From positions 29,015 through 93,014 of IMG/VR virus record IMGVR_UViG_3300008121_000001: a DNA stretch of 64,000 nucleotides, one strand, 5' to 3'. Made by a program: the position numbers and the translations under genes. This document shows positions 28,188 to 59,214 of this stretch, piece after piece. Each line of letters begins with the position of its first letter. Position 1 is the first letter of the stretch. The notes beneath the pieces are model-generated. The model saw nothing but the letters and a program-made list of their open reading frames with translations. It did no database searches and was not told where the DNA came from. This DNA is from a virus.

Positions 28188-29174
28188 ATGACAGAAGATA
28201 AGGAAACGTGGATTTTGTACCGTACCGAAAATTTGTTAAATCATAAAATTTATGTTGGTGTACACAAACTTACCGACACTTACAGGTCTAAAAATTATCT
28301 TGGAAGTGGTGATGCTTTGAAACCAGCCATTAAAAAACATGGCAGGGAAAATTTCACCAGAGTTACCCTAGCAGAGTTTAACTGTGCCGAAGATGCTTAC
28401 TTAGCTGAAGAAGTTATGGTTACTCAAGAATTTGTTAATCGTCCAGATACCTATAACATGAAAGTAGGGGGAATGGGGGGTAAGGGACTTATTTTTACCA
28501 AAGAACATAGAGCAAAAATAGGGGCTGCCAATAAAGGCAGGGTAAAGAGTATCGAAACCCGATTAAAACTTAGCGCTTCCAATAAAGGGAAAGTACATAG
28601 CGAAGAGACAAAAGCTAAAATTGGAGCAAAAAATAAAGGTAACAAACATATGCTCGGTAAAAAACTTAGCGAAGAAACTAAGGCAAAAATTAGTGCGGCA
28701 GGTAAAGGTAGGGAACTAAGTGAGGAGGCGAGAGCTAGGATAGGGGAGGCAAACAGAACAAGAGTTCTAACAGCAGAATCCAGAGCAAAAATTAGTGCTG
28801 CAAATAAAGGGAATAAACACACTCTAGGCAGAAAATTAACTGACGAACACAAAGCAAAAGTCAGTGCTGCACATAGAGGTAAGATAGTATCGGAAGAAAC
28901 TAGAGCTAAACTCAGCAATAGTCTTAAAGGTGTTAATGTAGGTGCTGAACATTGTCGGAGCATAGCAATAGTGATAAACGGCAAGTACTACGGATGCGTA
29001 GCAATAGCAGCTAAAGTAGAGAAAGTGAATCGTCAAACTATAATGGATAGAGTAAAAAATACCAGACTAAGATGGGTTGATTGGCGATACGCTACAGAAG
29101 AGGAAAAATCAGGGCATCCTAGAAGTACAATTTTAATTGAGGAAATTCTAGATTTATCCACTCCCAAAAACTGA
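28188..29174 (+). CDS. GIY-YIG homing endonuclease with NUMOD3 repeats
   Basis: ILYRT.N..N.KIYVGVH..YLGSG..YNMKVGG; about nine 'SEETKAKISAA.KG' repeats. Confidence 0.9.
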   Translation: MTEDKETWILYRTENLLNHKIYVGVHKLTDTYRSKNYLGSGDALKPAIKKHGRENFTRVTLAEFNCAEDAYLAEEVMVTQEFVNRPDTYNMKVGGMGGKGLIFTKEHRAKIGAANKGRVKSIETRLKLSASNKGKVHSEETKAKIGAKNKGNKHMLGKKLSEETKAKISAAGKGRELSEEARARIGEANRTRVLTAESRAKISAANKGNKHTLGRKLTDEHKAKVSAAHRGKIVSEETRAKLSNSLKGVNVGAEHCRSIAIVINGKYYGCVAIAAKVEKVNRQTIMDRVKNTRLRWVDWRYATEEEKSGHPRSTILIEEILDLSTPKN

Positions 29175-32530: not shown

Positions 32531-32659
32531 ATGCTGACACTACTGCTTAACTTGGTCACTTACCTTTTACTATCCCTGCTTGCAATTATTACAGTCTGCC
32601 TCATACTATTTTTTCTGTCTCTGCTTGTTGACGGTGTAGTTGAAAGGTTTAAGAGTTAA
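32531..32659 (+). CDS. 42-aa hydrophobic micropeptide
   Basis: MLTLLLNLVTYLLLSLLAIITVCLILFFLSLLVDGVVERFKS; GAGG upstream. Confidence 0.55.
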   Translation: MLTLLLNLVTYLLLSLLAIITVCLILFFLSLLVDGVVERFKS

Positions 32660-32660
32660 T

Positions 32661-32753
32661 ATGTTCTCTCACCTAATTTTGCCACTCATGATGGCGCTCG
32701 TCATCCCTGCACTTCTTGGCTACATTGCATTGAAACTTTACTTTGGTAACTAA
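32661..32753 (+). CDS. 30-aa single-TM micropeptide
   Basis: MFSHLILPLMMALVIPALLGYIALKLYFGN; 1-nt spacing to both neighbours. Confidence 0.6.
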   Translation: MFSHLILPLMMALVIPALLGYIALKLYFGN

Positions 32754-53794: not shown

Positions 53795-53929
53795 ATGAAA
53801 CATTTTTCCAATTTTTCAGCAAATATTTATCAAACTGGGATACAAAATCTGCTTAGTCCTGTCGTAGAGAAAGAGACTAAAAAATACATAAGAAAAAAGA
53901 AAGAGCAAGCAGAGACAGAAAAAGAATAG
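53795..53929 (+). CDS. 44-aa protein with N-terminal HFSNF motif
   Basis: MKHFSNFSANIYQTGIQNLLSPVVEKETKKYIRKKKEQAETEKE. Confidence 0.6.
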   Translation: MKHFSNFSANIYQTGIQNLLSPVVEKETKKYIRKKKEQAETEKE

Positions 53930-54070
53930 GGCGACCCCGCAGTTTGAGGACTGTTAGTAGCCTTGCAGGGTCTGTAATATATGGCAGTTTCGACTCTTAA
54001 CCTTGTAGCTAGCATAAGACCTTAAGAGTCCCGTGATGCCTACGGTAATCGGTCTGTAACCCGACTTTTT
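53930..54070. ncRNA. candidate structured RNA downstream of portal
   Basis: Stems 53933-41/53964-72, 53992-54000/54022-30, 54031-34/54042-45; possible pseudoknot 53983-86/54037-40. Confidence 0.45.
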
Positions 54071-54086
54071 TAATATATCACAACTA

Positions 54087-55613
54087 TTATGCAGGTGGCG
54101 CTCCTTCTTCAGGAGGATATGCTTCGGCTTGTCCTTCTGGTGGCATAGGTGGAGCTTGAAGTTGTTGCAACTGCGCTTGCAACTGTACAACCTGAGTTTG
54201 GTTCTGTAGCTCCTTCTGTACCTCAGCTTTAAGTGCTTCTTCGGCTTTTTTCTCCTTCTCGGTTTCATCCAGTGATGGTAGACCAAGATTCTTGTAGATG
54301 AGGTTGAGTACTTCGACATTATTAGTATCGATAATGCCACTTGCCATAAGCGAAGTGATAGTACTTAAACGACCATTAATGGTATTTTGGTCTTCTTCTA
54401 CATCAAAAACAAATTCTCCCCAATCTTCACTAAACCAACTTGAAGGGAAATTGTCATGCAATAACCCACGAATCATTTTATGAATAAATTCGTGCTTAAG
54501 TGTAGTTGTTAATGCAAAGATTGTTGCATCAAAGGTCATTTTGAAATTCTGACCGAAACCATTGTTACCGAGATTCGTGGTTCCTGAGCCACTGTTCACA
54601 TCAAATATGCCTGATGGTATGGCAAAACTTGACTGAATACCTCTATCAACATATTCCAGTGCTTTAAAGTGGTTATCGGCAGTATTTTGTATCTGAATAC
54701 GAGTAAGCTCAACATCATTATCAGTGACAATGAATCCTCTTTTTTGAATATCCTTTAGTTGATATGAAAGAGCAGTTTGTTTTGTTACCTCTAATGGTTT
54801 ATCTTTACTATCTTTCTTAACTGACCCATCAGGATTTATTAAAGTTGTTGTACCATTACTAGGTGTTTTAGCCCAGAGTAATCCTTCGCTGTCGTTTTTA
54901 ATTCTTAATGCAAGATGAGTTAAAATCACCTTCTTAAGCTTATAATAAGGCAGTGCCGAAATACCATCTCCGACACCCCAAACTGCTGTCTTATCAAACG
55001 CTGCACCTGCATTATTTATGATATGAATACATTTTTGATATGGTATTTTAACTGTTTTACCATTACCATTATCATATTCAATCCACTCTATTTTCCCAGC
55101 TTGATTTGTACTTTTTCCAAATGAAATAATTTGGTCTGGATTAAGTACATTAATATTCCCTATTCGCCATTGCCCTCTGTAGCCACGTATTTTGCTACTT
55201 TTAGTGAACTCAGCTATACCTATACCGTGTAGTATTACTGAAGAGAGTAGTTTAAAGACTATTTGTTTGAAATTTTTAGGTAAGGTATTTAAGTTACTAT
55301 TTACAAATGCTTCAATTTCTTTTTTTGGATGTTTATACTCTCCAAAGCTTTGTGTCGCACGTAATGCTTTAAAACTTAGACATTGGCTAGCTACAGGGTC
55401 ACGACTTGCCATAAGCGCCATTTCTTTAATAGGAGGGCGGTCTGTTTCTGCTGGATGATTGATACTCTGCATTGCTGCCCCAGTCAGTGAGGCAAGTTCT
55501 GTTGAGTATTGTCCCTGAGCCAACGCTGATAAAGGTGTAGGAACTCCAGAAAATAAAAGCTCTTCGTTTAGTTCTAGCAAGCTTAATTGTACGGCTTCTT
55601 CTGCAACAGGCAT
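54087..55613 (-). CDS. portal protein (DUF935/Mu gp29-like)
   Basis: RDPVASQCL; ILHGIGIAE; IPYQKCIH; LEYVDRGI..F.IP; size and context. Confidence 0.75.
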   Translation of the reverse strand: MPVAEEAVQLSLLELNEELLFSGVPTPLSALAQGQYSTELASLTGAAMQSINHPAETDRPPIKEMALMASRDPVASQCLSFKALRATQSFGEYKHPKKEIEAFVNSNLNTLPKNFKQIVFKLLSSVILHGIGIAEFTKSSKIRGYRGQWRIGNINVLNPDQIISFGKSTNQAGKIEWIEYDNGNGKTVKIPYQKCIHIINNAGAAFDKTAVWGVGDGISALPYYKLKKVILTHLALRIKNDSEGLLWAKTPSNGTTTLINPDGSVKKDSKDKPLEVTKQTALSYQLKDIQKRGFIVTDNDVELTRIQIQNTADNHFKALEYVDRGIQSSFAIPSGIFDVNSGSGTTNLGNNGFGQNFKMTFDATIFALTTTLKHEFIHKMIRGLLHDNFPSSWFSEDWGEFVFDVEEDQNTINGRLSTITSLMASGIIDTNNVEVLNLIYKNLGLPSLDETEKEKKAEEALKAEVQKELQNQTQVVQLQAQLQQLQAPPMPPEGQAEAYPPEEGAPPA

Positions 55614-55651
55614 TTGGTCTTATTATAGATATTATTACCCTAGTATATCTC

Positions 55652-56398
55652 ATGACAGATTTTCTTTTTCCCAAAATCACTGGCTATGAGTTTGTAGCTC
55701 CTCGTACTGCGGTCAACAAACCATTTGAAACAATCTTTGCTGCCGAAGATTTTTCTTTGCACGACCGAATTAATGGTACATATGATAAACATTTTCCTCT
55801 CTATGTACTCACAAATATTCAAGGTGCATCAAGCAATTATCGTCCCAGTATCAATTTAATCAGCGCTACGGGACTAGAGAAAAAACTAATGGGGGCAATG
55901 ACTCCGACTATATACAAAGAAAAAATAAATCGCCGAGAATACGGGAGAAAAAACGAAATTCATCCTACTCTAGGCAATAAAAATCTTGTCTTAAACCGCA
56001 TATATTATCGTGAATTTTTAATTCCTAAGTTTGACCCTCGATACACCTTAATTGTTGATGGTAAGTTTATAACCAACACAATCCAAAAACCCTCAGACCA
56101 ATTTGCCGACATCGGCAATATGCCTAGCAGCGTTTTTGAGCCGTTTGCTAAAGGAAGTCTTGTAAAGTACTCTGGTAACTACTGGAGATGCCTAGAGTCT
56201 ACCAAAGCTTATCCGAGCGGCGAAGATACAAACTGGAAACAACTGCCGCAGGAGCAATCAATTTTTACTGCGGATATTTACTCGATTTTTGGCAGTAACG
56301 TGCAATTCTTACAAACTTACACCGAAGACCGAGAATTTCGACCTGAGCAGCAAGATACCTCTCTGGTTACATATAATGTTTCATGTTTTTATGGTTAG
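55652..56398 (+). CDS. virion protein with CBM5/12-like module
   Basis: FAKGSLVKYSGNYWRCL...P....NWKQL. Confidence 0.6.
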   Translation: MTDFLFPKITGYEFVAPRTAVNKPFETIFAAEDFSLHDRINGTYDKHFPLYVLTNIQGASSNYRPSINLISATGLEKKLMGAMTPTIYKEKINRREYGRKNEIHPTLGNKNLVLNRIYYREFLIPKFDPRYTLIVDGKFITNTIQKPSDQFADIGNMPSSVFEPFAKGSLVKYSGNYWRCLESTKAYPSGEDTNWKQLPQEQSIFTADIYSIFGSNVQFLQTYTEDREFRPEQQDTSLVTYNVSCFYG

Positions 56399-56404
56399 AT
56401 AAGA

Positions 56405-56514
56405 GAGGGTTGAACCCATGAGTGTCCCGTAGGGCGCGAAAGATGTTGATAGTAGGTGAACGTCGGTTTCATACCGTGTGGTTGTTAACTCATCCCTAGC
56501 CTACTACGGCATCC
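56405..56514 (+). ncRNA. candidate structured RNA/leader
   Basis: GC-richer island; stems GATGTTG/CGGCATC, TAGTAGG/CCTACTA, GTGTCC/GGGCGC, CGGT/ACCG; long-range ATGAGT/ACTCAT. Confidence 0.55.
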
Positions 56515-56537
56515 TTTAATCAAGTAAGAATAAATAG

Positions 56538-56603
56538 ATGCTTTATATAATAATTGGTTTGGTTTGTATAATTTTTGTAGTAATCTTTAACGAGTGCAAT
56601 TAA
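56538..56603 (+). CDS. 21-aa TM micropeptide
   Basis: MLYIIIGLVCIIFVVIFNECN. Confidence 0.5.
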   Translation: MLYIIIGLVCIIFVVIFNECN

Positions 56604-56610
56604 TAAATAC

Positions 56611-56685
56611 ATGACTTGGACAACTTTAGCTATTATTTTCTTTATTTTTGTCATTTACGATATCTATGAGCTTCACAAGAAATAA
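56611..56685 (+). CDS. 24-aa TM micropeptide
   Basis: MTWTTLAIIFFIFVIYDIYELHKK. Confidence 0.6.
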   Translation: MTWTTLAIIFFIFVIYDIYELHKK

Positions 56686-56763
56686 ATGAACATTTTCCTC
56701 ACTCTGCTAGCTGGTATATCTCTAGCTACAACACTTCTCGCCCTTTATACTTTACTATTATGA
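56686..56763 (+). CDS. 25-aa TM micropeptide
   Basis: MNIFLTLLAGISLATTLLALYTLLL; abuts previous stop. Confidence 0.55.
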   Translation: MNIFLTLLAGISLATTLLALYTLLL

Positions 56764-56855
56764 TTACTTGGGTTTTGGCGATTTTACTTGTCTTAGTTAC
56801 AAGTTTTGCAGTTTGGCTTGTTTGGCAACTTATGAAATTTGTTCCTTGGAGATAA
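56760..56855 (+). CDS. 31-aa TM micropeptide
   Basis: MITWVLAILLVLVTSFAVWLVWQLMKFVPWR; ATGA overlap. Confidence 0.6.
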   Translation: MITWVLAILLVLVTSFAVWLVWQLMKFVPWR

Positions 56856-56856
56856 T

Positions 56857-57282
56857 ATGTCTAAATGCTCAACACTACGATTTAAAATTTATTCGCGAGA
56901 TTACGACAAACTCAGAAAACATACTGATAATCTAAGTACAAACCCTTCAAATCAAGCTAGACTTTGGGTACAATCTCAAATTAATAGGTTGCCAGATGAA
57001 ATTGAAGAACGTGACCCAAATTTCAAACTAGAGCATCTTGAATCTGCCTTACAACATTGGGGATTTATTTTCGACTCAAATTTTATGAGCGACTCTCCTA
57101 CTTTAAACGGTAAGTATGTTAGCAAATTCTTGAGTAAAACTTTAGTTATTTATGAATGCTTGGATGGTGTATTCTTGCATTATTGCAATGGGATAGACCT
57201 TATACCTAATTGCCATGCTTTTCCTCATATTTTGCGTCGCAGGGTGAATTTGTTAATGTCAACTCATACTATTCGACCGTAA
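56857..57282 (+). CDS. hypothetical protein with RHH-like N-terminus
   Basis: STLRFKIYSRDYDKLRKH...NPSNQARLWV. Confidence 0.6.
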   Translation: MSKCSTLRFKIYSRDYDKLRKHTDNLSTNPSNQARLWVQSQINRLPDEIEERDPNFKLEHLESALQHWGFIFDSNFMSDSPTLNGKYVSKFLSKTLVIYECLDGVFLHYCNGIDLIPNCHAFPHILRRRVNLLMSTHTIRP

Positions 57283-57290
57283 TATACCTC

Positions 57291-57761
57291 TTAAGATAGA
57301 TAATTTGGATGTTCTGTTATAGGTGTTTCAAGGTAGTTAATAAAACTTTCAAACTTTTCTTTTACAGACTCCAGATTGTCACCTAGTATACCTAAAGTAG
57401 AATTACATTTAAAACATAAAATTCCTCTTGCAATTCCCGTTTTGTGGCAATGGTCGAATGCTAATTGTTTCTCTGAGCTACAAACATCGCACTTGTCTTT
57501 TCCCCTTTTTATAAATTTTGCCGATTCTTCTTTGCTAATTTTTAAACTAGAAGCCAAATAAGAGACTTTATTACGTTTCTTCCATTCTGAAGATGCTTTA
57601 ACTTGTTTAGCGCTATTTTTGGGATACCAAACGTTCTTAACATATTCATTGTGACATTTTTTACATTTAGAACTTCTCCCAGTTTTAGATGTCTTTTTAA
57701 TAGAAAAATCTAGAACTTTTTTCCAAGTTTCACAACCAGTACAATACAAAGTTTCTTCCAT
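57291..57761 (-). CDS. endonuclease VII-like HNH homing endonuclease
   Basis: CDVC..LAFDHCHKTGIARGILCFKCNSTLG. Confidence 0.88.
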   Translation of the reverse strand: MEETLYCTGCETWKKVLDFSIKKTSKTGRSSKCKKCHNEYVKNVWYPKNSAKQVKASSEWKKRNKVSYLASSLKISKEESAKFIKRGKDKCDVCSSEKQLAFDHCHKTGIARGILCFKCNSTLGILGDNLESVKEKFESFINYLETPITEHPNYLS

Positions 57762-57867
57762 ATTAGTCTCATAACCAATTTTTAAATTATCTATATTTAT
57801 GATACCACAGTTATATCTATATCTTTAGATAGAGTTGTAGGTTAGTAATATTGTGTTATATTAAAGA

Positions 57868-57945
57868 AGCCAGTAGAGTGACGTGGTTTCATGTCAGGTT
57901 CATACCCTGAAGACGGCAGTTGGTTCGATTCCCTGCAACTGGCTT
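57868..57945 (+). tRNA. tRNA-Met(CAT) (or Ile2), atypical T arm
   Basis: AGCCAGT/ACTGGCT acceptor; TCAGG-TTCATAC-CCTGA; GGTTCGATTCC. Confidence 0.75.
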
Positions 57946-58058
57946 AACACCCTTCCGAGTGTCTCGGATTGCTTAGTGAAAGTGGCAGCTTCAACGCTGC
58001 GTCTCGCCCTGATAAGGCGAGGCTACCACAGGTGGAGATGGAAACTAATACTGGTGTT
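57946..58058 (+). ncRNA. multi-branched RNA with an Ile anticodon-like hairpin
   Basis: AACACC/GGTGTT closing stem; TCCGAG/CTCGGA; GCAGC/GCTGC; GTCTCGCC-CTGATAA-GGCGAGGC. Confidence 0.5.
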
Positions 58059-58061
58059 CAT

Positions 58062-58133
58062 AGCCGTATAGCTCAGTGGTAGAGCGCTCTCTTGATAAGG
58101 GAGATGTCGTAAGTCCGATTCTTACTTCGGCTA
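58062..58133 (+). tRNA. tRNA-Ile(GAT)
   Basis: TAGCTCAGTGGTAGAGC D arm; CTCTC-TTGATAA-GGGAG; GTAAG-TCCGATT-CTTAC. Confidence 0.85.
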
Positions 58134-58155
58134 TTGGCTTAATCGCCAAATATAG

Positions 58156-58260
58156 ATAAGAGCTACATTACGTGAGTGTGTAGAGTTGGGGCTGGTAATA
58201 TTACAGGCTGTTAGAAGGTTCCAAGAACGGTTGTAACACAGTTGAGAACTGACCTCTTAT
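58156..58260 (+). ncRNA. cloverleaf-like RNA with potential pseudoknot
   Basis: ATAAGAG/CTCTTAT closing stem, three hairpins, TTGGGGCT/GGTTCCAA pairing. Confidence 0.5.
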
Positions 58261-58270
58261 TATTTCAAAT

Positions 58271-58341
58271 GGGACTGTAGCTCAGTGGTAAAACCTACGC
58301 CTGTCTAGCGTATGTCGAGAGTTCAATTCTCTCTAGTCTCG
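58271..58341 (+). tRNA. tRNA-Asp(GTC)
   Basis: TACGC-CTGTCTA-GCGTA; GAGAG-TTCAATT-CTCTC. Confidence 0.85.
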
Positions 58342-58360
58342 TCGGTAATACACCGAACAT

Positions 58361-58435
58361 GGAGCTATCGTATAATGGTTCGTACAGCAGGTTTTCATCC
58401 TGACAATCGGGGTTCAATTCCCCGTAGCTCTTCCA
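58361..58435 (+). tRNA. tRNA-Glu(TTC), CCA encoded
   Basis: CAGG-TTTTCAT-CCTG; CGGGG-TTCAATT-CCCCG. Confidence 0.88.
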
Positions 58436-58439
58436 ATAT

Positions 58440-58512
58440 GCGGATTTAACTCAAAGGCAGAGTGCTTCGCTTCCAACGAAGAAGTCGGTGATTTCAAAAT
58501 TCCCAATCCGCT
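58440..58512 (+). tRNA. tRNA-Gly(TCC), irregular T stem
   Basis: GCGGATT/AATCCGC; CTTCG-CTTCCAA-CGAAG. Confidence 0.8.
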
Positions 58513-58519
58513 TAATAAT

Positions 58520-59080
58520 CTATAGCTCAGCTAATTTTCTACGCCTTCTTGATATATAAGCGTCAGATACTCCTAAAAACTCCCCTACTGCTACATTAGT
58601 CTTGTATTTTTTAATAAGTTCTTCAAGATTTATAGAATCCCAATTAATTTTACCTGAATTTTTTTTACTAGTTGCATGACATTTTGTAGAGCAATATTTT
58701 TGAGTTTCAGGTTTTATATTGCCACATATTGAACAATTATCATAAACTTTTAACCGTTTACTGCCTACAAATTTAAAAGTTTCATCAAATTTTTTATAGT
58801 TTGTAGGTAATTTTAAATCATTGTTATGAACTTCTCTGTGGCAATTAGCACAAACTAATATACATTTTCTTAGCTCTTCAACAATTTTAGCCCAATTTGC
58901 ATTGTTGGCTCGAACTTTACTAAAAGAAAAATCTTTCTCTTGAGGATTTATATGATGAAGTTCTAGTGCAGCTATACATTTTTTGTACCCGCAGACTTGA
59001 CAAGAGCCACCCATAGAGTCAACTATAAGCTTTTTAACTTTTTCTCTGTGTCTTTTTATTATTTCTGAACCTTTAGTCAT
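58520..59080 (-). CDS. HNH homing endonuclease
   Basis: CQVCGY...LELHHINP..K...CILVCANCHREVH. Confidence 0.88.
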   Translation of the reverse strand: MTKGSEIIKRHREKVKKLIVDSMGGSCQVCGYKKCIAALELHHINPQEKDFSFSKVRANNANWAKIVEELRKCILVCANCHREVHNNDLKLPTNYKKFDETFKFVGSKRLKVYDNCSICGNIKPETQKYCSTKCHATSKKNSGKINWDSINLEELIKKYKTNVAVGEFLGVSDAYISRRRRKLAEL

Positions 59081-59142
59081 ATTTATACATATATTGTTAA
59101 TTTAATTGTATCATGTTCGACTTATGTTATTATAGTATTAAT

Positions 59143-59214
59143 GGGTCATTAGCTCATGTGGTAGAGCATCTGGCTTTTAACCAGACTAAGACGATTCAGG
59201 CTCGCCATGACCCT
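59143..59214 (+). tRNA. tRNA-Lys(TTT)
   Basis: GGGTCAT/ATGACCC; TCTGG-CTTTTAA-CCAGA. Confidence 0.85.

Follow-up and report, generated by a model that had tools for sequence, protein, structure and literature searches.

A candidate accessory cassette of micro-membrane-protein genes, with an optional structured RNA element, in a hypervariable slot of a cyanophage genome

The 64,000-nt stretch of DNA analyzed here (the window) comes from an IMG/VR virus record of 93 kb (IMGVR_UViG_3300008121_000001, positions 29,015 to 93,014) and, judged by sequence, is a relative of the Pseudanabaena phages Pam2 and PA-SR01, the only matches that a DNA search returned for positions 55600-57800 (70-72% identity). 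Between a conserved gene for a protein of 248 amino acids (aa) and the predicted promoter and tRNA array, the window holds what gene order marks as a hypervariable slot, and in it lie a structured RNA element (E) within a GC-richer island, a row of four very small open reading frames (ORF1 to ORF4) and a gene for a 141-aa protein with a ribbon-helix-helix-type N-terminus (Table 1). The reading that we favor, with confidence somewhat above even, is that these are exchangeable modules of an accessory cassette: an RNA element, genes for micro-membrane-proteins and a ribbon-helix-helix-type gene. Comparison of homologous copies shows that ORF3 and ORF4 are real genes under purifying selection, and comparison of the slots shows that the cassette is dispensable and recombining. 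On the same comparisons the RNA element is an optional add-on for which a role as a switch is not demonstrated. What is new here is the set of unannotated accessory micro-genes; the setting, a phage plasticity slot, is known and will not surprise a specialist.

Table 1. Positions of the features discussed, numbered from the first letter of the window
Feature	Position	Strand	Basis or remark
Portal gene	54087-55613	-	weak Phage_portal match (Pfam)
Conserved 248-aa gene	55652..56398	+	left anchor of the slot; divergent from portal gene
RNA element E	56398..56521	+	fold prediction, diverged homologues
P0, weak closing helix of E	56398-56405 with 56514-56521	+	fold
P1, hairpin of E	56407-56417	+	fold
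P2, hairpin of E	56422-56437	+	fold
P3, long bulged hairpin, main feature of E	56442-56513, branched tip 56458-56498	+	fold
ORF1, 21 aa, candidate gene	56538..56603	+	one hydrophobic helix; first link of the four-ORF chain
ORF2, 24 aa, candidate gene	56611..56685	+	helix then charged C-terminus; stop abuts ORF3 start
ORF3, 25 aa, real gene	56686..56763	+	uncharged hydrophobic helix; in-frame conservation, dN/dS
ORF4, 31 aa, real gene	56760..56855	+	helix then basic tail; in-frame conservation, dN/dS
141-aa protein gene	56857..57282	+	ribbon-helix-helix-type N-terminal domain (about residues 1-45), C-terminal alpha/beta domain
Right-hand junction motif CTCTTAAGATAGATA	57288..57302		kept across relatives, precedes tRNA array
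Endonuclease VII/HNH-type gene	57291..57761	-	between cassette and tRNA array; PF02945, phrog_2633
tRNA array	58061-59214		beyond the right border of the slot
Second HNH/Endonuclease VII-type gene	58520-59080	-	Pfam/PHROG searches

Content of the slot among relatives

The region downstream of the 248-aa gene was compared in eight IMG/VR loci, two isolates (Pam2 and PA-SR01) and one further locus. The 248-aa gene itself has no Pfam or PHROG match and is kept at 70-85% aa identity in the eight IMG/VR loci, Pam2 and PA-SR01; its stop codon forms the left border of the slot. The right border is the short junction motif CTCTTAAGATAGATA, which follows directly 3' of the last cassette gene in all relatives and, in PA-SR01, where the slot is empty, directly 3' of the 248-aa gene; as a word the motif is not enriched in the window (7 matches vs 5.8 expected).

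Between these borders the content varies from one relative to the next. With X standing for a further hydrophobic ORF of 30-32 aa and O5 for one of 19 aa, the window reads E, ORF1, ORF2, ORF3, ORF4, 141-aa gene; locus L009 reads a diverged E, ORF3, ORF4; L013 reads ORF3, X, ORF4, 141-aa gene; L004 reads X, ORF4, 141-aa gene; and Pam2 reads ORF4, O5 and a 140-aa gene. Decay is visible in L008, which has X and then an ORF4 with an in-frame internal deletion of 13 codons, and in L006/L007, where an eroded E is followed by an ORF3 stub that a deletion has joined to the interior of the 141-aa gene, while the slots of PA-SR01, L005, L010 and L011 are empty. In every combination the modules meet either in an ATGA overlap or with a stop directly abutting a start (TAA-ATG), and in L013, L004, L008 and Pam2, which have no RNA element, 8-38 nt separate the stop of the 248-aa gene from the first micro-gene. 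The slot is in this respect a clean natural experiment in module gain, loss and decay.

The cassette has also moved recently. From 56234 onward a 2957-bp twin contig (L049, JBKCEW010000023.1) departs from the window in a single base, T to G at 57184; upstream it is mosaic, with 71 differences from the window within about 230 nt, and the block must therefore have been transferred between phages not long ago. The twin is binned in a metagenome-assembled genome of Crocinitomicaceae yet carries the cassette of this phage, which is probably a binning error. A search for additional relatives by metagenome scan, by DNA patterns for ORF4, ORF3, ORF2 and the L009-type element and with the distant homologue P0006 brought nothing new.

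Among known arrangements, the hyperplastic regions of T4-type phages come closest; in them small-ORF modules are shuffled and PeSL cassettes, repeated promoter-plus-stem-loop units, occupy many sites per genome (PMC2839356, PMC4122927). Both have a fixed slot between conserved genes, small and mostly orphan ORFs that are gained, lost and swapped among close relatives at short conserved junctions, stem-loops among the ORFs and homing endonucleases (here probable ones) nearby. Unlike the PeSLs, the element described here is single-copy and has no promoter-like site, and the junctions are stop-start overlaps, not promoters.

The micro-ORF row and the 141-aa gene

The four ORFs of the row all begin with ATG, each encodes one hydrophobic helix, and the gaps along ORF1-ORF2-ORF3-ORF4-141-aa gene are 7, 0, -4 and 1 nt; in lengths and spacing the initial annotation was exact. 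Nowhere else on either strand of the 64 kb do four small ATG ORFs form a tightly spaced chain, and none appeared in 5000 dinucleotide shuffles of 56521-56870, in which chains of three were found 4 times.

For the two distal ORFs, the ratio of nonsynonymous to synonymous change (dN/dS) is decisive. ORF3 is in frame in L009 (3046-3123) and L013 (3741-3818) with dN/dS of 0.03-0.14, and 12 of its 16 variable columns fall at codon position 3 (p = 8e-4); ORF4 is in frame in Pam2, where it is unannotated, and in L004, L009 and L013, with pairwise dN/dS of 0.07-0.20 and no excess of silent changes in its other two frames. It is because of this in-frame conservation, the low dN/dS (0.03-0.20 over both) and changes lying mainly at third positions that we call these two genes real. 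The initial annotation had proposed a genuine row of micropeptides, to be checked by dN/dS and synteny in relatives: this holds for ORF3 and ORF4, whose frames and ATGA overlaps are conserved, and lacks comparative support for ORF1 and ORF2, which were found outside the window only in the near-identical twin contig.

ORF1 and ORF2 are nevertheless probably real genes as well. They could instead be chance frames in an A+T-rich spacer, with only ORF3, ORF4 and the 141-aa gene real, a possibility to which we give a smaller but still appreciable weight: neither has a homologue in any collection searched (the twin apart), their segment is 23-28% GC and the codon score of ORF1 is neutral. Chance frames sit poorly, however, with the absence of four-ORF chains among the shuffles, with the rank of ORF1 as the most hydrophobic of the 286 small ATG ORFs of the window, with the start context ATAAATAnATG that ORF1 and ORF2 have in common, and with the ORF2 stop abutting the ORF3 start just as X abuts ORF4 in relatives. 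The codon score of ORF2 (0.19) lies in the range of real genes and is reached by 7% of null ORFs; the score is underpowered here, since even the true genes ORF3 and ORF4 are unremarkable on it.

Database searches place none of these proteins. The four peptides are absent from a collection of 15 billion proteins and have no Pfam or PHROG match, an atlas look-up of ORF4 gave no lead, and no Pfam family of small photosystem or cytochrome b6f subunits or of high-light-inducible proteins matches the six micro-proteins at E up to 10; nor are there paralogues of ORF4 or ORF2 elsewhere in these genomes. Small single-helix modulators of larger membrane proteins are familiar from Escherichia coli (AcrZ, MgrB, KdpF, CydX and SgrT). 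The micro-proteins resemble these, and the small subunits of the cyanobacterial photosystems and cytochrome b6f, in their length of 20-35 residues and in consisting of a single hydrophobic helix with a short charged tail and no further domain, but differ from them in having no sequence relation to any family.

At least two micro-protein genes supported by selection, and probably up to six module types, are thereby added to this phage group, and they are unannotated even in the isolate Pam2. Annotation of phage genomes tends to overlook small membrane proteins, and Pam2 on Pseudanabaena is culturable.

A second adjacent pair of small hydrophobic ATG ORFs lies at 32531-32659 and 32661-32753 on the + strand (42 and 30 aa, 1 nt apart), between larger genes; both rank in the top 10 for hydrophobicity among the window's small ORFs.

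The 141-aa gene that closes the row has its ribosome-binding site, GGAG, within the final codons of ORF4. Six homologues of its protein were found, five of them close and the sixth distant (E = 5.6e-12), and all come either from this phage group or from an undefined source; there is no Pfam, PHROG or PDB sequence match. Searches of Pfam with five members, at E up to 10, brought up no ribbon-helix-helix family, and PDB sequence and profile searches no ribbon-helix-helix chain. In the monomer model helices occupy residues 14-23 and 30-43, and in a homodimer model of residues 1-56 the strands at 5-13 run antiparallel (residue pairs 8-8, 9-7 and 6-10) while helix 2 packs on helix 2 with contacts at 34-38. 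This homodimer scored 0.49 against 0.00 for the best control, with contact agreement between runs of at least 92% and a partner pLDDT of at least 74. Of 30 solved homo-pairs 20 attained that mark, as did 1 of 23 single chains, and a pass may reflect likeness to, or memory of, solved ribbon-helix-helix dimers. On these models the N-terminus is probably a ribbon-helix-helix-type dimer, in agreement with the initial annotation, which had recognized a gene of this kind downstream of the row, and the protein may be a dimeric DNA-binding transcription regulator. A fold search for the C-terminal domain, made with the low-confidence monomer model, gave no structural match.

Ribbon-helix-helix regulators include Arc and Mnt of phage P22, CopG, and NikR with its added C-terminal domain. 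The 141-aa protein is like them in its predicted strand-helix-helix N-terminus forming an antiparallel beta-ribbon dimer, and like the NikR type in being a small (here phage) protein with an extra C-terminal domain; it is unlike them in lacking a Pfam-profile or PDB sequence match and, for the C-terminal domain, a structural match. In L013 a short ORF just 5' of the 248-aa gene (2835-2983, + strand) resembles another ribbon-helix-helix-type protein: read by eye, its sequence suggests a basic strand at the N-terminus and then two helices.

The size and hydrophobicity of the peptides are also those of type I toxins, and the ribbon-helix-helix fold is common in antitoxins, so that the peptides might be type I-like membrane toxins, or holin-type lysis factors, restrained by an RNA or by the 141-aa protein. 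The gene order fits such a pairing in part: the 141-aa gene, presumably co-transcribed, lies 3' of ORF4 in all four relatives carrying the intact gene, directly after it in L004 and L013 and after the extra 19-aa ORF in Pam2. We nonetheless think this very unlikely, for L009 has ORF4 without the 141-aa gene, the coupled row contains four to five distinct peptides, its neighborhood has no lysis genes, and a consensus scan found no promoter-like site on the - strand beneath the micro-ORFs (56400-56860).

The RNA element and the reading of the cassette

The initial annotation saw a GC-richer island folding into nested stems, and as a description this is accurate. The GC content of 56400-56499 is 0.49, vs 0.23-0.28 just downstream in the micro-ORF segment, and all of the pairings listed are present: 56442-48/56507-13 and 56450-56 (plus 56457)/56500-06 (plus 56499), which build the long stem P3, and 56422-27/56432-37, which builds P2. 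The element folds better on the + strand (z -2.43, equaled by 2 of 200 shuffles) than on the - strand (z -1.04), which agrees with the several G-U pairs on the + strand, and the + strand outfolds the - strand in all three element variants. P3 has 15 pairs in the window and 16 in L009, and in both an A bulges from the 5' strand; over three sequence contexts its pair probability is 0.70-0.99 in the window and 0.94-1.00 in L009. Within it, a 7-bp stem (P3b) surrounds two hairpins. The closing helix P0 holds in minimal context only.

Diverged homologues of the element are found in L009 and in L006/L007, where alignment shows the ends and some stretches of the stems to be truly homologous. The stem is retained in the window and L009 at a sequence identity of roughly one half, against 91-92% for the adjacent ORF3 and ORF4, and the L009 element still folds far better than chance (z -3.70, with none of 200 shuffles as good). 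RNAalifold finds 5 pairs with changes on both sides, on an unreliable alignment of three variants; because there are only three, covariation has no statistical power here.

The initial annotation proposed an RNA-controlled operon, that is, a regulatory leader (riboswitch-like, or a switch between two folds) that turns the micropeptide genes on or off. The position of the element 17 nt 5' of the ORF1 start (in L009 directly 5' of ORF3), its stability on the + strand and an alternative 6-bp pairing in the window would suit such a leader. The association is inconstant, however: the same micro-genes occur without the element in L013, L004, L008 and Pam2, and therefore the element cannot be the required controller of the operon. 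Nor does the predicted structure offer an expression platform. There is no intrinsic terminator in 55400-58200 (the tip of P3 is about 40 nt long, and the hairpin is followed by no more than UUU), and the ORF1 start region (56522-56540) is unpaired in both the minimum-energy and the centroid fold, leaving no start-masking helix. The alternative pairing had been put forward as a pseudoknot or second fold: ATGAGT (56418-23) is indeed the exact complement of ACTCAT (56488-93), but one perfect 6-nt complement is expected about once, by estimate, among the hexamer pairs of 110 nt, the pairing competes with the stable hairpin at 56422-37, and the L009 element has no equivalent. An Rfam search, the check suggested with that proposal, placed the element in no family: its scope included tRNA, the glutamine riboswitch/Downstream-peptide motif and small ribozymes, and it gave nothing at E up to 10 over 56396-56540 and nothing, with the cutoff at E = 1, for the elements of L009 and L006, the only match in 56200-57000 being a chance-level snoRNA at 56858-56908. 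We regard a regulatory leader as improbable, and much the same holds for a small RNA gene; a consensus scan shows no promoter-like site at the element.

The element could also be a functionless relic, a decayed tRNA-like gene or other array RNA that recombination has stranded in the slot. Within the window the P3 core finds its best local match in a tRNA-like gene with a CAU anticodon loop at 57870-57943 on the + strand (score 39, vs 20.7 +/- 4.0 for shuffles), which itself stays below the threshold of the Rfam tRNA model (19.3 bits); the 7-bp stem of P3b around two hairpins suits such an origin, and the element is optional and is eroded in L006/L007, whose cassette is broken too. Scores of 38 and 37.5 elsewhere in the window mean, however, that the match to the tRNA(CAU)-like gene is not significant genome-wide, the Rfam tRNA model and ARAGORN both miss the element, and the long stem is retained in both the window and L009 although their sequences have diverged heavily, with the L009 fold far better than chance. 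We consider a relic unlikely, though less so than a leader.

Two further possibilities were considered and set aside. As a mimic of a CRISPR repeat, the 18-mer at 56426-56443, which spans hairpin sequence and GAAAG, gave 28 single matches in GTDB genomes, about the number expected by chance, with no arrays and no cyanobacteria; one match is the phage contig L049 and the rest are unrelated, including a Duodenibacillus repeat. A repeated element is excluded in that neither the record to which the window belongs nor any of five relatives contains a second copy.

We tentatively prefer to see the element as an intercistronic hairpin for processing or stabilization. RNase III cleaves such hairpins, the R-sites, in the polycistronic mRNAs of phage T7. 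Like these, the element is a long, irregular, bulged hairpin, presumably between genes of one transcript, and has no U-tract; unlike them it has a branched tip and is optional among relatives, and its cleavage is only postulated.

Put together, the favored reading of the cassette would run as follows. The row would be read from the transcript of the 248-aa gene, and the four single-helix membrane micro-protein genes would be translationally coupled to one another, the ribosome-binding site of the 141-aa gene lying inside ORF4. The peptides may insert into the host membrane and make helix-helix contacts with host membrane proteins, in an accessory role such as excluding other phages or tuning a host complex, and the 141-aa protein would act as a transcription regulator. 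The element would be no sensor; as a bulged hairpin of 15-16 bp for intercistronic processing or stability, it would uncouple the fates of the 248-aa message and the cassette at the point where about 140 nt breaks translational coupling.

Several points weigh against this account. Only three variants of the RNA element are available, its 5' hairpins pair homologous sequence differently in the window and in L009, and the L006 element folds no better than shuffles (z -1.0). Because four relatives do without it, the element could be a neutral relic, and the nuclease site within it is putative. The ribbon-helix-helix call has no sequence-profile support and the monomer model of the 141-aa protein is poor (pLDDT 56). 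ORF1 and ORF2 have no homologues beyond the twin, the codon score of ORF1 being neutral besides, and none of the four peptides has a family match in Pfam, PHROG or the atlas.

A bolder reading, and in our judgment a long shot, is that the GC island founds an undescribed class of tRNA-array-linked phage RNAs and that the coupled micro-proteins are under ribbon-helix-helix control. If so, the island might be a tRNA-derived punctuation signal, cut by the tRNA-processing enzymes of the host to release the cassette message, and the micro-proteins would be a phage toolkit for docking on host membrane or thylakoid complexes, controlled by the ribbon-helix-helix protein. For the present, the RNA element and the pairing of ORF4 with the ribbon-helix-helix gene are leads, not discoveries.

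Neighboring genes and further observations

Two HNH/Endonuclease VII-type genes flank the tRNA array. The one next to the cassette matches PF02945 (E = 2.5e-17) in Pfam and phrog_2633 (E = 2.3e-25) in PHROG. Because neither gene is found at these places in the relatives examined, sequence comparison suggests that both are homing-endonuclease insertions, and the one next to the cassette is probably a homing endonuclease.

The tRNA(CAU)-like gene between the cassette and the array is missed by ARAGORN. Relatives carry clearer versions of it at the corresponding place, and the copy in PA-SR01 is annotated as tRNA-Met (PMC10286775). Just 5' of it, 57854-57862 resembles an extended -10 box that is conserved in all relatives and may be the promoter of the tRNA array. 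The idea that the RNA element is a decayed copy of this gene was rejected: no local score in the window is higher, but others come close to it.

Within the tRNA array lies a structured 106-nt element that is not a tRNA, at 58155-58260 (+) in the window, 5364-5468 in L006 and 4861-4966 in L013. Its mean column identity is 96%, with paired changes in the first hairpin of L013, and it has no Rfam match; a covariance model built from the three copies (R1) recovers only those copies, at 120-128 bits. The cassette's RNA element was also considered as a paralogue of this array RNA and rejected: R1 finds nothing at the element, with filters off too. The two share a 10-mer at the 5' end and a local score with p = 0.006, within the window only.

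Another GC-richer island, at 53926-54075, lies directly downstream of the portal gene. It folds better on the - strand (z -2.46) than on the + strand (z -0.78), and its + strand terminates in a hairpin followed by a U-run.

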